A stretch of DNA of 64,000 bases, from NCBI GenBank assembly GCA_951406725.2, contig OX597814.1:84010001-84074000 (forward strand), written 5' to 3'. The position numbers were made by a program, and so were the translations under genes. Source of the DNA: Octopus vulgaris. Its lineage: Eukaryota. The notes under the pieces were generated by a model. That model did not search any database. It was given only the letters and a program-made list of their open reading frames with translations, and had not been told where the DNA came from. Positions 17,675 to 63,575 of the stretch are shown piece by piece; the stretch's first letter is position 1, and each line of letters opens with the position of its first letter.

Positions 17675-19038
17675 CAACACACTCGCATATATGCAAACAT
17701 ATAATGCTCACTGTCTCTCTCTATATATACAGATCTGAATTTTAAACCATATAGTACTTTATTATGTAAAGAAAAAGAAAGAAATCTCTAACACCAAGCA
17801 CTGATACGAATATAACACCGTATCGTCTCTATTATTGCCAATACTGCTTTATAAAGAATGCAGTACTACTTCAGATATAAGATATTGATGTTTTATATAG
17901 TCCACTTTGGACGCCATTGTGTTGCTATACACTCAAGCACTATAGACTGAAATTTGAGCTAACATGAGAGACTAAATGTTCGTTTGACCTCCTAGAAATA
18001 GTAGTCACATCTCCGTCAAATCACATATTTTGTCGTAGAAAAAATATGATATACCTTCCAAGTTTTTTTTTTTTTCAGAGAAGAAAAGCGTGGAATGGTT
18101 ACGGATGGAATGCTTTTAATGACAGATCTACTGGGTCAGGTTTAACCTCTAACTAAAGAAAAACAAAGACCAACAAACACAACTAGGCAAGTAGCTTCTA
18201 CGTGATCGCTTCACTTGGTAAAGATAGTCGCTAATCTCCCGCGAATCACACCCTACACTTGTATAATGTGGTCTTGGGTTACCTGAGCACAGGAAAGAGG
18301 AAGAAAAGTTACCACTGGATTGCTCACAATCTAGTAACAGCGACAACAACGGTAACAACTTATACCGAATATGAAACATGTCCCATTTGACCGACTGGTA
18401 AAGATTCAACCGCGGTTTCATACCCAGGACTACTCAAGCCACTCAAGACACATTGTTCCTTTTTGTTTACCCAGGACTACTCAAAACACTTTGTTCCTTT
18501 TCGTTACCTGTACCTTATCAAACACCACGCATCGCCAAGTTATGTTTTCCCAGAATTAGAAACTCCCTAGAATTCCTACTTAATCCACATAATATTTTTT
18601 GCAGATGCCGATATGAAAGATATTCAAAATAAAACGCGCAGAGGCATGACTGCGTCGTTAAGAAGCTTGCTTTGCAACAACACGGTTTTGAATTCAATCT
18701 CGCTGCGCAATAACTTGGGCAGTGTCTTCTACAATAACTCCTGGGTTGAACAAAACTTTGCAAGTGGATGAGATGGACTGCGTGGACTTCCACCGTATAT
18801 ATATATATATATATATAATAAATTAATAAATAAAATAAAACATATGCATATATACATACATATATGTACGTACCTACCTCTACATGTATATATACATGCA
18901 TATATGGGTACAGGACACCAAAAAAAAAAAACGTCGAACACAATGAGAAACGAAAACATAAACACAAAACCAAGGAAATGGACATTTTTCTTAAACAACG
19001 AAAAAATAGAGTACAGGACATACAATACAAGGAAAATT

Positions 19039-19100
19039 CCCCTTCTTCAGTCGCCTTTGTTTCATCTACTCCACGTTTCGAAAGTCAAGGCGAGACATGA
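19039..19100 (-). ncRNA. Candidate non-circularly permuted hammerhead ribozyme (copy)
   Basis: Reverse complement of the 20022-20083 motif with one change in helix II. Confidence 0.65.
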
Positions 19101-20021
19101 CTTTAATGAAACATTCCCTCCCGCGAAAAGCAAATTAAATAAAATTTGAGATTTTTTTGCGGAGGGGTAAAAATGGTAACAAAAACAGGACAGTAACGAC
19201 AGTACAAAATATAAACAGTAAAAGACAGGACAAGGAGAATAACAGTAACACAGACAAGAAGGGATGTTAAGCCGAACGAGATAAAATATTACGAACGCTA
19301 TTTTTGGGAAAGGCGAAGTCCTGTACTCTATTTTTTCGTTGTTTAAGAAAAAATGTCCATTTCCTTGGTTTTGTGTTTATGTTTTCGCTTCTCATTGTGT
19401 TCGACGTTTTTTTGGTGTCCTGTACCCATATATGCATGTAGAGGTAGGTACGTGCATATATGTATGTATATATGCATATGTTTTATTTTATTTATTAATT
19501 TATTATATGACGGAACGCACGCATCCATTTCTAAGTAAAATTGTTCTAAATATTAATAATGATGCGCACTCTTAACCTTTCTCTCCTCCTCCCTTTCTCA
19601 GCCTTCATTCTTTCGGGTTTCCTTTTCTTCTACCTTACTGTCTCTCCCTCTCTCTCTCTCTCATTCTTCATTCCTTCTGGTTTTCTCTACAACTATTCCC
19701 TTTTTTATCTCTCTTTCTCTTGCTCCTCCTGCTCCCTCCCGTCGTTGACCTGCGACGAGAGCTCTGCTACTGTCTTTCTGACATGGCTTCCTTCAAGTGT
19801 AGACGGCATTTCTGTGGCTCCTTCGCGTTTTCAAAAATAGCGTTCGTAATATTTTATCTCGTTCGGCTTAACAGCCCTTCTTGTCTGTGTTACTGTTATT
19901 CTCCTTGTCCTGTCTTTTACTGTCGTTACTGTCCTGTTTTTGTTACCACTTTTACCCCTCCGCAAAAAAATCTCAAATTTTATTTAATTTGCTTTTCGCG
20001 GGAAAGAATGTTTCATTAAAG

Positions 20022-20083
20022 TCATGTCTCGCCTTGACCTTCGAAACGTGGAGTAGATGAAACAAAGGCGACTGAAGAAGGGG
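20022..20083 (+). ncRNA. Candidate non-circularly permuted hammerhead ribozyme
   Basis: UCAUGU-C-UCGCCUU..CCUUC-GAAA-CGUGG..(13 nt)..AAGGCGA-CUGAAGA-AGGGG. Helix I is 7 WC bp, helix III 6 bp, and the site is GUC. Confidence 0.7.
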
Positions 20084-20345
20084 AATTTTCCTTGTATTGT
20101 ATGTCCTGTACTCTATTTTTTCGTTGTTTGAGAAAAATGTCCATTTCCTTGGTTTTGTGTTTATGTTTTCGTTTCATTGTGTTCGACGTTTTTTTTTGGT
20201 GTCCTGTACCCATATATGCATATATATATACATGCAGAGGTAGGTACGTACATATATGTATGCATATATGCATATGTTTTATTTTATTTATTAATTAATT
20301 ATATGACGGAACGCACGCATCCATTTCTAAGTAAGATTGTTCTTA

Positions 20346-20389
<44 letters not shown>

Positions 20390-20599: not shown

Positions 20600-20661
20600 C
20601 CCCTTCTTCAGTTGCTCCTGTTTCGGCTACTTCGCGTTTCGAAGGTAAGGGCAAGACACAA
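20600..20661 (-). ncRNA. Candidate non-circularly permuted hammerhead ribozyme (diverged copy with compensatory changes)
   Basis: UUGUGU-C-UUGCCCUU-A-CCUUC-GAAA-CGCGA...AGGAGCAA-CUGAAGA-AGGGG. Relative to copy 20022, helix I has C-G to U-A and helix III has A-U to G-C. Confidence 0.65.
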
Positions 20662-21673
20662 CTTCGTTGAAACAATCCTTCCCGCAAAGCAAATTTAATA
20701 ATAAGTGGTAACAAGAACAGGACAGTAAAAACGTGTGTGTCTGTCTATTTGTGTCTTTGCGTCTATGTTTGTCCACCTACCCACCGCGTGTTTGGTTTCT
20801 TTACGTCCTTGTAACTTAGCCCCTCGGCAAAAGAGACTGAAAGAATAAGTTGCAGACTTTAAAATAGGAATTGTGGATGATATGTTCTACTAGAAGCCTT
20901 CACTTCGGTGCCCCAGTATCAATGCAATCCAGTGGCTGTAACAAGTAAAATATGAAGTATAAATGATCAACCACGCCAATCTCAGCGGCGAAGAATTGCA
21001 AAGCCAAAGGTCATTTGCCACACGTTCTCACCTGACGCGAGCAAACACAGACACACACACACACATACTCTTTCAGGCACCTCACCTTTGACTCAGCGGC
21101 ACATCCAGGATCTGACAGCAGGATAGAAAGACAAAGAGAAAGAGAAAGAAAACGGTACACTTGCACCAAATTGGTACTCTTTTACAAATAAGTAGATTGC
21201 GGAAATATGAAATTAAGTATCTTCGCTCAAAAACGCTACGTATTACTTACTCGGCCTAGGAACTGAAATCTGTAACTACTAGGCCACGCGTCTCCACTCC
21301 TATGACTATCTTAGCAAGTGTAAAAAAAATCAGTATAACTAAGGTGTTAATTCGGGTTAACAAAAAATTAGTCCAACCACATGGTTCCGAGTTTAATCCC
21401 ACCGTGTGGCGCCATGGGCAAATATCTTCTACTATAGACTCTGCGCTGACCAAAGTTTTGTGAGTGGAATTCCACTGATGCGGGTTTAAACATTAACAGT
21501 AACAACAGTAACACCTGATATCGAATATGAAACATGTTTCATTCGACCGATTGGTGAAGATTCAACTGTCAAAATGCTTTAACTAATAACCCAGGGATGC
21601 ACTATTTCTCCTCTCTACTTCTTTTATTACTACTACATTGGTAGACGGAAAGAAACTGTGTGAAAGCCCGTCG

Positions 21674-23614: not shown

Positions 23615-24250
23615 GATTTCAAATTTTGGCACCAGGCCAAGTTCGGGCGAAGGAGTAAATCGATTGCATCGACTCCACTGCTCAACTGGTACATATTTCA
23701 TCGACCCCGAAAGGGATGAAAAGCAGAGTCGACGGACTCAATGCTGCTATGCATTTTGCTGGGCACGGTAACAATTATGTCAGCTCGCCGCTTTAATAAT
23801 ATTGACAATAATCTTTTCTAGGCCTAAAACTGGTTGGTAGGAAGGGAGATAGTCGCTTATATTGAACCCAGTTTTCTACTGGTACTTATTTTATCGACCC
23901 CGAAAGGATGAAAGACAATGTCGATCTCAACGGAATTTGAACTCGGGACGTAGAGAGAGACGAAGTACCGCTAAGCATTCTGTCCGGCGGGTAGGTAATT
24001 CTGCCCGCCAGCTCGGCGCCTTAAATAATAATAACACAGATTTCAAATTTTGGTACAAGGTCAGCAAATTCGGGGAGTGGTGAGTCGATTACATCGACCC
24101 CAGTGTTCAACTGGTACTTATTTCATCGGCTCTGGAAGGATGAAAGACAAAGATAACCTCGGCAGGATTTGAACTTAGAACGTAAAGACAGACAAAATAC
24201 CGCTAAGCATTTGGCTCGGCGTGCTAAAGATTCTTCCAGCTTGCTACCTT
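23615..24250 (-). mobile_element. SINE family A, three consecutive copies
   Basis: Repeated TCGACCCCGAAAGGATGAAA bodies separated by (AAT)-rich spacers. Confidence 0.75.
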
Positions 24251-38139: not shown

Positions 38140-38202
38140 ATTACCGTATTGGTCCCAATTTCGGGGTTAATTCATAAGAATTTTCCCCTCTTCAGCGATA
38201 AA
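38140..38202 (-). ncRNA. Type I hammerhead ribozyme (inverted copy of 38711-38773)
   Basis: Reverse complement of the same motif, with one change at the distal end of helix I. Confidence 0.88.
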
Positions 38203-38710
38203 TACGTGAGATATAAGTGAAATACTTACTCATACCCATGGAAAAAGCAAGCACTAAGTCCTGAGCAAACCTAAGTACCCCAAATATATCCAAAATAGAA
38301 AATCTTCGGCACATCTCGAGACACGTGTGATTCGAACTAGAAACTTTCACAGAGTGAGAGAATCCGGAAGTGAACACTATTCAATTTATAATTAATGTAG
38401 GATTAAAATTTTTCGGGAAAAAAATTTTTATCAATGGCCAGCATATAAAAAAATACCTTTAAAGGTTAAATTTATAAATAATTTACAAGAAAAATTCTAA
38501 TGCCAAATATGCCGAAAAAAAGACAAAAATTGTCAATAACCATTATAATTTATACGTCTCGAAACAAACCGATAGAAATTTCTATCTCGTTTCTCGAGAT
38601 GTGCCGAAGATTTTCTATTTTGGATATATTTGGGGTACTTAGGTCTGCTCAGGACTTAGTGCTTGCTTTTTCCATGGGTATGAGTAAGTATTTCACTTAT
38701 ATCTCACGTA

Positions 38711-38773
38711 GTTATCGCTGAAGAGGGGAAAATTCTTATGAATTAACCCCGAAATTGGGACCAATACGGTAAT
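38711..38773 (+). ncRNA. Type I hammerhead ribozyme, canonical core
   Basis: GUUAUCG-CUGAAGA-GGGG...CCCC-GAAA-UUGG(GA)CCAA-UA-CGGUAAU. All three helices pair (helix I is 7 bp with 2 GU pairs). Confidence 0.9.
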
Positions 38774-39165
38774 AACGGATTTTTTAGAAATTTCTATCGG
38801 TTTGTTTCGAGACGCATAAATTATAATGGTTATTGACAATTTTTGTCTTTTTTTTCGGCATATTTGGCATTAGAATTTTTCCTTTGTCCTTATCTTGTAA
38901 ATTATTTATAAATTTAACCTTTAAAGGTATTTTTTGATATGCTGGCCATTGATAAAATTTTTTTTCCCGAAAAAAATTTTTTCCTACATTAATTATATAT
39001 ATATATATATATATATGCATGTATGTGTGTATGTATGCATGTATGCATGCCGTGTGGTTACTCCAACAGGACGTCATCCAATTCATGTAAAAAATAAAGA
39101 ATACACTAGCAAAAAATCAAAACAAAACTAGTCCTAAAAATATATATCTCAATCGCATACATCTA

Positions 39166-43899: not shown

Positions 43900-44875
43900 A
43901 TTCTTTATACTATAGGCACATGTCCTGAAATTTCGTGAGAAGTGGCTAATCGATAATATCGACTCCGGTGCTTAACTGATCGACACCGGAAGGATGAAAG
44001 GCAAAGTCGACCTCAGCAGAATTTGAACTCAGAATGTAAAGACAGGTGAAATGCCGCTAAGCATTCTACCCGGCGTGTTAACGATTCCGCCGCCTTAACA
44101 ATAATAATCTTTTCTACTCTAGGAACAAGGCCCGAAATTTTGGGGGAGGGAGCCAGTCGATTACATCGACTCCAGTACGCAAATGGTATTTAATTTATCG
44201 ATCCTGAAAGAATAAAAGGCCAATCGATATCGGCGGAATTTCAACTCAGAACGTAATACCTATTTTTTTTATTGCCCACAAGGGGATAAACATAGAGAGG
44301 AGAGACAAAGACAGACAAACGGATTAAGTCGATTATATCGACGCCAGTGCGTAACTGGTACTTATTTAATCGACCCCGAAAGGATGAAAGGTAAAGTCGA
44401 CCTCGGCGGTATTTGAACTCAGAACGTAACGACAGACGAAATACCTATTTCTTCACTACCCACACGGGGATAAACACAGAGAGGACAAAAAGGACAGATA
44501 AACGGATTAAGTCGATTATATCTACCCCAGTGCGTAACCGGTACTTATTTAATCGACCCCGAAAGGATGAAAGGCAAAGTCGACCTCGGCGGAATTTGAA
44601 CTCAGAACGTAACGGCAGACGAAATACGGCTACGCATTTCGCCCGGCGTGCCAACGTTTCTGCCAGCTCACCCACTTCTTACTAATAACAATATTAATAA
44701 TCATAATTATTATTTCTACACTAGGCACAAGGCCTTGAAAAGTTTTTGGGGAAAGGGGCTAGTCGATTACATCGACCCCAGTGAGTAATTGGTACTTGTT
44801 TCATCGACCCCGAAAGGATGAAAGGCAAGGTCGACCTCGGCGGAATTTGAATTCAGAACGTAGCAGTAGACGAAC
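43900..44875 (-). mobile_element. SINE family A cluster including a tandem trimer (44110-44675)
   Basis: Bodies repeat at about 172-184-nt spacing. Confidence 0.8.
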
Positions 44876-56789: not shown

Positions 56790-57385
56790 TCTTTTCTACT
56801 CACGGCATAAGACCCGAAATTTTTGAGGGGGGGGGGGGGGGCAGTCGATTACATCGACCTCAGTACGCAACTGGAACTTAATTTATCGACCCCAAAAGGA
56901 TGAAAGGCAAAGGCGACCTCGGCGGAATTTGAACTCAGAACTCAGAACGTAGCAGCAGACGAAATACCTATTTCTTTACTACCGACAAGGGGCTAAACAC
57001 AAAGGGGACAAACAAGGACAGACAAACGGATTAAGTCGATTATATCGACCCCAGTGCGTAACTGGTACTTATTTAATCGACCCTGAAAGGATGAAAGGCA
57101 AAGTCGATCTCGGCGGAATTTGAACTCAGAACGTAGCGGCAGACGAAATACCTATTTCTTTACTACCCACAAGGGGCTAAACACAGAGAGGACAAGCAAG
57201 GACAGACAAATGGATTAAGTCGATTATATCGACCCCAGTGCGTAATTGGTACTTATTTAATCAACCCCGAAAGGATGAAAAGCAAAGTCGACCTCGGCGG
57301 AATTTGAACTCAGAGCGTAGCGGCAGACGAAATACCGCTAAGCAAATTGCCCGGTGTGCTAACATTTCTGCCAGCTCGCCGCCTT
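56790..57385 (-). mobile_element. SINE family A tandem trimer
   Basis: One head at 57385 and three bodies at about 185-190-nt spacing. Confidence 0.85.

Positions 57386-63163: not shown

Positions 63164-63575
<412 letters not shown>

Follow-up and report, generated by a model that had tools for sequence, protein, structure and literature searches.

Hammerhead ribozymes of types I, II and III have the core block orders CGS, GSC and SCG, respectively, and the order SGC is non-circular (Eckert 2023, PMC10085705). In the accessible sections of that paper type SGC is recorded only from metatranscriptomes (viroid-like circles), the search patterns fix CUGAUGA(U)G together with a directly downstream helix II, and no more than 1-2 nt are assumed between CUGAnGA and its helices. 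Of the work on variant and animal hammerheads, as far as the accessible texts go, Perreault 2011 has short core insertions only, a 2026 animal retrozyme preprint (Li et al.) has type I models only, and variants bearing extra helices are mentioned in a 2026 paper, where Eckert and Forgia are two of the three references given. Naiads are reported to be without canonical hammerheads, some of them being marked HHR_core or HHR_half_core, and those of cephalopods are described as long inactive; the marks of Penelope-like elements given by the same paper include an inverted 5' copy and tails of 30-40 bp (Craig 2021, PMC8557442, accessible sections). RNA circles have been proposed for Penelope-like elements (PMC4209133) and animal retrozymes are known to be circularized by RtcB (PMC7229834). 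A role of the hammerhead in setting the 5' end of the reverse-transcribed RNA is, in the accessible Penelope-like and retrozyme literature, proposed rather than shown. Searches of the full-text literature found no report of hammerheads of type SGC or CSG from animals or Naiads (subscription journals and the supplements of the retrozyme preprint lie outside this body of text), and none of a helix insertion at A9/G10.1 (subscription journals again outside).

The window analyzed here is a stretch of 64,000 nt from the genome of Octopus vulgaris (contig OX597814.1, positions 84,010,001 to 84,074,000). At 20022-20083 on its plus strand, hammerhead core blocks can be read directly from the sequence in the order S-G-C. 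Block S (20022-20035) comprises the 5' strand of helix III (20022-20027), C17 (20028, with the predicted cut at 20028|20029) and the 5' strand of helix I (20029-20035); besides the sequence, covariation and a pile-up of 5' ends point to it. Block G (20038-20051), for which covariation and subfamily consensuses speak in addition to the sequence, comprises CCUUC (the 3' strand of helix II, 20038-20042), GAAA (20043-20046) and the 3' strand of helix III (20046-20051). The same kinds of evidence identify the 3' strand of helix I (20065-20071) and CUGAAGA (20072-20078), which is block C minus its helix II strand. AGGGG (20079-20083) comes next; the original prediction took it as the partner strand of helix II, and the MFE fold, the alignment and the duplex energies suggest that it is the 3' strand of another helix, here called the clamp. 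The ribozyme accordingly exceeds 20022-20083 and most likely spans 19955-20083.

Much of the original prediction is visible in the sequence itself. The three core pieces stand in an order that comes from no circular permutation (S-G-C, the block order of type SGC, and not CGS, GSC or SCG), helix I has seven Watson-Crick pairs, and the three local copies are real, at 20022-20083 (+), 19039-19100 (-) and 20600-20661 (-). Compensatory changes had been claimed for the diverged copy at three pairs. Two are indeed two-sided, C-G to U-A at pair 1.2 and A-U to G-C at 16.4, whereas U-G to U-A is one-sided; there is a further two-sided change, U-A to C-G at pair 1.6, and pair 1.5 is a C.A mismatch. The expectation that standard descriptors would miss the motif was also correct, since no Rfam family reached its gathering score anywhere in the window and no hammerhead family appeared at E<=10 on 19900-20150. 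The patterns of Eckert 2023, as given in the accessible text, would likewise miss the ribozymes of this repeat because they are tied to CUGAUGA(U)G with helix II downstream. Two more conventional readings were discarded: a canonical type I reading gave a single loose and implausible match, on the third copy, and a minimal dimeric type I form via the ACGU palindrome after GAAA founders on the next base, which is G, and on the loss of the palindrome in other subfamilies.

The motif lies within an insertion of about 1.3 units of a non-coding repeat of ~785 nt (19318-20349, +), whose 3' end is in (TA)n. One unit is 19318-20102, and 19318-19553 recurs at 20103-20349; no long ORF was found in the unit. 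Joined to the 5' end of the insertion is an inverted, 5'-truncated copy (18813-19318, -) that is equivalent to 19821-20304 and also ends in (TA)n. The second ribozyme copy (19039-19167, -) can form all five helix II pairs, two of them as G-U. The third copy (20600-20681, -) is older and belongs to another subfamily; the clamp 5' strand and the start of the next hairpin (Pa, see below) are deleted, and it is probably dead. A minority of copies carry a tail of ~40 nt (20305-20345, +) containing CATCCATTT, which is found too at the 3' end of the Naiad_Ovul consensus.

A pattern joining the G block to the C block had 5,290 matches in the genome versus 2 for the reversed control, and a genome search with 111 nt of the repeat returned 2,224 candidates, 40 of which were scored. 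Most of 60 loci stop at ~20304 or ~20345 (~40 nt apart) and then run into (TA)n; their 5' ends are variable, some wrap beyond one unit, and at two loci (L021 and L139) ribozymes occur as same-strand pairs 765 and 818 nt apart. Most copies are single, dispersed and 5'-truncated, and some are 96-98% alike. The repeat thus has the marks of a non-autonomous Penelope-like element, as had been proposed: 5' truncation, partial tandems, an inverted 5' copy, a 30-40-nt tail and a microsatellite, (TA)n, as target. Contigs of four sequencing runs cover the stretch; these carry neither end nor strand information. The window also contains a SINE-like repeat in tandem copies (period 183-184) at 44251-44627 and 56843-57336, with pieces at 23655-24245.

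For the analysis of covariation, 64 of 135 distinct full-length copies, two of them from the window, were picked to cover the subfamilies and aligned. In a 41-pair model 91.5% of the cells are paired (86.1 +/- 0.3% in shuffles), two-sided changes occur in 215 cells (76.8 in shuffles), neither value being reached in 500 shuffles, and 20 pairs show a two-sided change (14.9 in shuffles; 5/500 as high), with the proviso that this test is inflated by the relatedness of the copies. Slid controls pair only 37-47%. The predicted covariation of helices I and III, which flank the core, is present across the copies, five of the seven pairs of helix I and four of the six of helix III having two-sided changes; it extends to a further helix, I' (6 of 9 pairs), and to the base of Pa (2 of 4). 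The outermost pair of helix III is kept in 25/64 copies only.

Eleven subfamily consensuses were built on 48 of the 64 rows. All 11 have CUGAnGA, GAAA and UH (H not G), and the core is invariant except at H17 (C in 5, U in 4, A in 2, never G) and N7 (A in 7, U in 3, G in 1), while 17 of the 22 unpaired columns outside the core vary. Conservation of the G and C blocks is partly built in because the alignment was selected by a pattern on these blocks; U16.1, H17 and N7 are free of that pattern. Judged from the alignment, H17 and N7 vary as hammerheads do.

Which strand completes helix II is harder to decide. The original prediction paired CCUUC with AGGGG downstream and took the nucleotides between helices III and I for a 13-nt link. 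The pseudoknot-free MFE fold of 19950-20090 instead has the clamp, a hairpin at 19960-20001, a helix joining 20009-20017 to 20056-20064, and helix III. In the clamp, CCCCU (19955-19959, +) pairs with 20079-20083 directly after A9. The hairpin, Pa (19960-20001, +), adjoins both the clamp and G10.1 without an unpaired nucleotide. Next comes the proposed 5' strand of helix II, G10.1-10.5 (20002-20006, +), which is 96.6% paired in the 64 rows and reads GAAGG in the family and GAAAG in the 20022 copy, giving one A.C mismatch there. The I' helix, a putative I-II interaction with its 5' strand at 20009-20017 (+) and its 3' strand at 20056-20064 (+), is indicated by both fold and covariation, so that the supposed link is largely paired, in a covarying helix. 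The upstream order of CCCCU, hairpin, GAAGG and the strand that pairs with 20056-20064 is kept in every subfamily. The clamp is 94.6% paired in the 64 copies, without two-sided change; its first four pairs are C-G in all 11 consensuses and the fifth is U-A in nine. At pair 2 of the Pa base, 33 of 63 rows have C-G and 22 have U-A.

Energetically the upstream strand is the better partner: GAAGG/CCUUC gives five Watson-Crick pairs opening with G-C (-7.3 kcal/mol) and leaves AGGGG to the clamp with CCCCU (-9.2 kcal/mol), whereas CCUUC with AGGGG gives four pairs, two of them G-U (-3.1 kcal/mol). In paired cells the two are close (96.6% upstream versus 98.4% downstream, 64 copies), and covariation within the family cannot choose between them because helix II and the clamp hardly vary. 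The opening pair G10.1-C11.1 can form with either partner in this repeat and forms with the upstream partner in related families; a helix II strand within 1-2 nt after CUGAnGA is possible but weak here and absent in the two other families of this genome. The fourth helix that the validated SGC ribozymes need to link the distal sides of helices I and II would be supplied by I', which joins the same pair of strands, only if helix II uses the upstream strand. Two further pairings were dropped, namely a splint between the leader AAGGA and a 3' UCCUU (its G residues pair more favorably in helix II, and the splint is missing from related families) and a local hairpin after A9 (only -0.6 kcal/mol).

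Against the upstream partner, inserting two helices between CUGAnGA and helix II goes beyond the 1-2 nt assumed in the accessible part of Eckert 2023. The validated SGC ribozymes of that paper (PMC10085705, same sections) have a bulged U at the A9/G10.1 link, so this link does tolerate insertion. The MFE z-scores (-1.2 to +0.6) do not stand out, and of five family sequences folded, two keep only the clamp or Pa and otherwise adopt another structure. A descriptor written for the split fold matched 3 places in the window and nothing in 25 shuffled windows; 92/135 full-length copies pass it. The 20022 copy fails because of its A.C mismatch and the third copy is without the clamp strand, so the window copies are not the best objects for a test.

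It is related families that favor the upstream strand: there it pairs, and the downstream pairing is broken or absent. The descriptor revealed a putative ribozyme of the same split layout at 63269-63397 (+), in an unrelated non-coding repeat of ~677 nt (period about 654-677 nt, copies 98-99% alike, a (TA)n end near 63460). Its helix II joins 63316-63320 to 63350-63354 by five upstream Watson-Crick pairs, C17 is at 63338 and CUGAAGA at 63384-63390; it has no downstream helix, its clamp is offset by 2 nt and its I' is imperfect. The genome also holds copies that closely match the published Naiad_Ovul 3' end. Of 20 Naiad-type copies parsed from 30 loci, 18 are free of indels; each of the six positions of upstream helix II is paired in 16-18 of these 18, whereas downstream pairing fails at positions 3 and 5 in every one (0/18). 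Four old copies (L268-L271) have GAAA and then CUGAUGA with a Naiad-like motif and are too degenerate to parse. Elsewhere in the window there is an inverted pair of canonical type I hammerheads at 38710-38775 (+) and 38140-38203 (-), in a repeat that ends in (TA)n; helix I has 6-7 pairs, helix II 4 and helix III 5, and a further copy is in locus L172.

Helix II most likely takes the upstream strand, with clamp, Pa, helix II and the core meeting in a four-way junction between A9 and G10.1, and the partner first proposed is probably wrong. As judged by pairing here and in the related families, this split four-way fold is likely to be the active form.

The same layout can be made out by eye in published Naiad consensuses, judged only in passages where motif searches matched and covering part of the 54 3' ends. 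The elements were named from the header that comes after each passage and from the order of the metadata. Those with the split layout are Naiad_Amil, Aacu and Anas (coral), Naiad-3_Chem, Naiad-2_Movir, Naiad_Plae, Naiad-4_Dst, Naiad_Obim and Naiad_Ovul, i.e., cnidarians (coral, Clytia, Morbakka), an acanthocephalan, an ostracod and octopuses. The same visual reading gives each of them a clamp, a hairpin, a helix II opened by G-C, I', III and I, arranged alike although the helix sequences are unrelated; outside the octopuses (five lineages) there is no way to form helix II downstream. By eye, a plain CSG layout with a long I-II helix fits Naiad_Parc, Naiad-2_Nbra, Naiad-3_Nbra, three further passages from the nematode side of the consensus file and Naiad_Smim (spider). 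Naiad_Bfor fits except for a 2-pair helix I, and several passages fit neither layout cleanly. Several arthropod Naiads have, in the passages viewed, CCCC-CUGAnGA with GAAA upstream; neither layout fits, and they may be another variant.

If the cut RNA is what is reverse-transcribed, genomic copies are expected to start just after the cut. We therefore located the 5' ends of 49 independent copies, picked on downstream sequence alone after removal of window copies and duplicates; ends were read from BLAST against the window copy, and four that were due to a deletion in that copy were moved upstream. Twenty of the 49 start at 20029-20046 (623 nt at risk) and none at 19978-20028, the 51 nt before the cut (1,224 nt at risk); five start at 20047-20105 (1,523 nt at risk) and 18 at 19600-19977 (4,618 nt at risk). 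Twenty ends in 623 nt compare with 23 in 7,365 nt elsewhere (P~1e-11). Only one of the 20 is exactly at 20029, most being 3-17 nt downstream, from which we infer that a few bases are lost at the junction. In genome-order samples of mixed subfamilies (excluding L179 and L200, both full-length), 14/43 copies start at +1 to +13. The 677-nt family behaves similarly: of all 88 exact matches to a downstream 23-mer (78 measured, 10 shown only to extend >=8 nt upstream), 17 have their 5' end at +5 to +18, compared with 12 in the 5,008 nt scored elsewhere (P~1e-5). Read-through of the site is seen in about half of the copies of the ~785-nt repeat; either part of the RNA escapes cutting or the template is religated. 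The pile-up of 5' ends in both families is indirect evidence pointing to cleavage in vivo.

Could the pile-up and the conserved fold have another explanation? One is that the motif is a plain type SGC ribozyme, in whose helix II CUUC pairs with the downstream GGGG past a 1-nt bulge, the upstream strands forming an inhibitory fold that spares some RNA, or an irrelevant one. The four downstream pairs are possible in 98.4% of the cells, the validated SGC ribozymes in the accessible data share the 1-nt bulge and the 3-nt I-II link, and an off-state would produce the roughly one-half of copies that read through. But this makes the weakest of the three duplexes (-3.1 versus -7.3 and -9.2 kcal/mol) the functional one, offers no reason for the invariance of GAAGG and CCCCU or the covariation of the Pa base, and is impossible in the 63269 family and, in the passages viewed, in five Naiad lineages of otherwise the same layout, where an off-state would be pointless for lack of an on-state. 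We consider it unlikely. Somewhat less likely still is that a hammerhead-derived fold has been kept for binding a reverse transcriptase or host protein, the excess of 5' ends marking a transcription start or a stall. That 1 of 20 ends falls exactly at 20029 and most lie 3-17 nt beyond it would suit such a role, as would the view that hammerheads may simply parasitize these elements (Craig 2021, PMC8557442, accessible sections). A stall, however, should occur at the 3' edge of the fold, ~50 nt downstream, where there are few ends (5 in 1,523 nt); in each of two unrelated families the excess breaks off abruptly at the predicted cut, and an H17 that is C, U or A and never G across subfamilies follows the cleavage-triplet rule.

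Finally, short motifs might have come together by chance in a G+C-richer patch of the repeat. The core motifs are short and the folding z-scores are not significant, but the two-sided changes in four helices, the 0 matches in 25 shuffled windows, the recurrence of the layout in unrelated sequences and the positional signal in the 5' ends make this very improbable. Taken together, the evidence, all of it computational, indicates that 20022-20083 very probably belongs to a cleaving hammerhead of non-circular order. To the full reading, an active non-circular (reverse-order) hammerhead in a non-autonomous Penelope-like element, of type SGC opened between A9 and G10.1, we assign a probability of about 0.75.

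On this preferred reading, hairpin Pa and helices III, I' and II would fold first as the transcript crosses the unit; helix I and the clamp would form once CUGAAGA and AGGGG emerge, and the RNA would then be cut after C20028, leaving a 5'-OH end. The chain would leave the core at A9 into the clamp and G10.1 would arrive from Pa, giving a four-way junction without an unpaired linker. A Penelope-like reverse transcriptase would prime at the A/U-rich stretch 275-320 nt past the cut, on a (TA)n target. With cut linear RNA it would run off at the cut; with uncut or circularized RNA it would read through and might exceed one unit. Circularization by a host ligase is suggested by analogy with animal retrozymes alone.

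As for the element that drives the repeat, the ribozyme layout, the target and the CATCC(A/T)TT tail motif point to Naiad. The driver may be another element, because cephalopod Naiads are described as long inactive and the ~785-nt repeat has copies 96-98% alike; the Naiad-type copies examined in this genome are short and old. The genome contains a young 781-aa element with a C-terminal GIY-YIG and many intact frames that ends in (TA)n, which from its CxxC motif appears to be of Neptune/Nematis type (our own label); six of its loci contained no S-G-C motif. Near the 3' end of one locus (L171, G000:C16:20834300-20841300) inspection revealed a possible type I hammerhead with a U3-A8 core swap. 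At locus L077 (G000:C9:53351331-53354594), near 1096-1107, a unit of the ~785-nt repeat stands head-to-head with a 5'-truncated ORF fragment of 781-aa type; this single junction may reflect a template switch or chance.

More broadly, it is fairly likely that an architecture outside Eckert's six permutations, with clamp and hairpin separating CUGAnGA from helix II at a four-way junction, is the so far unrecognized ribozyme of Naiad-type elements, and of the non-coding elements that depend on them, in at least four phyla, with CSG in nematodes and a spider (both from the Naiad passages viewed), so that non-circular hammerheads would be abundant in animals and their cleavage recorded in 5' ends. 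If true, such hammerheads would no longer be rarities of metatranscriptomes but present in thousands of copies in the genome of an animal, and the working rule that the CUGAnGA block stays joined to helix II would be overturned. The missing canonical hammerheads of Naiads and the HHR_core and HHR_half_core leftovers would be explained, and the 5' ends would be one of the few pieces of genomic evidence that the hammerhead of a Penelope-like element determines where the reverse-transcribed RNA begins. For engineered switches, the A9/G10.1 junction would offer an obvious site of attachment.

How does the locus compare with the systems described so far, as far as their accessible descriptions go? 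It shares with type SGC (HRIMA-1 and variants) the S-G-C order, two core pseudoknots and a full core, an I-II link of ~3 nt, and an I-II helix that joins the strand after 10.x with the strand before 2.x. Unlike the metatranscriptomic type, it sits in an animal nuclear genome, its 10.x and I' strands are probably upstream, and a clamp plus hairpin at A9/G10.1 would divide block C. Type CSG, represented by two metagenomic sequences, is of the same reverse cyclic class, and moving its 2.x-CUGAnGA to the 3' end gives the order found here; CSG, however, has an intact block C with no clamp or inserted hairpin. Like non-LTR retrozymes (PMC7229834; Li et al. 2026), the repeat is a non-coding unit with one hammerhead per unit, occurring in partial tandems and with a Penelope-like link. 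Theirs are type I hammerheads in tandem arrays with monomers of about 220-350 nt, whereas this one, described here from its DNA copies, has a ~785-nt unit, a hammerhead of S-G-C order and mostly dispersed, truncated single copies. With Naiad (Craig 2021, PMC8557442) it shares (TA)n targeting, 5' truncation, partial tandems, the inverted 5' copy and a 30-40-nt tail, and Naiad_Ovul and Naiad_Obim, copies of which occur in this genome, have a ribozyme of the same layout at their end. Unlike an autonomous Naiad, whose ORF has an N-terminal GIY-YIG and a C-terminal reverse transcriptase, the ~785-nt unit is without an ORF, and its ribozyme is unrelated in sequence.
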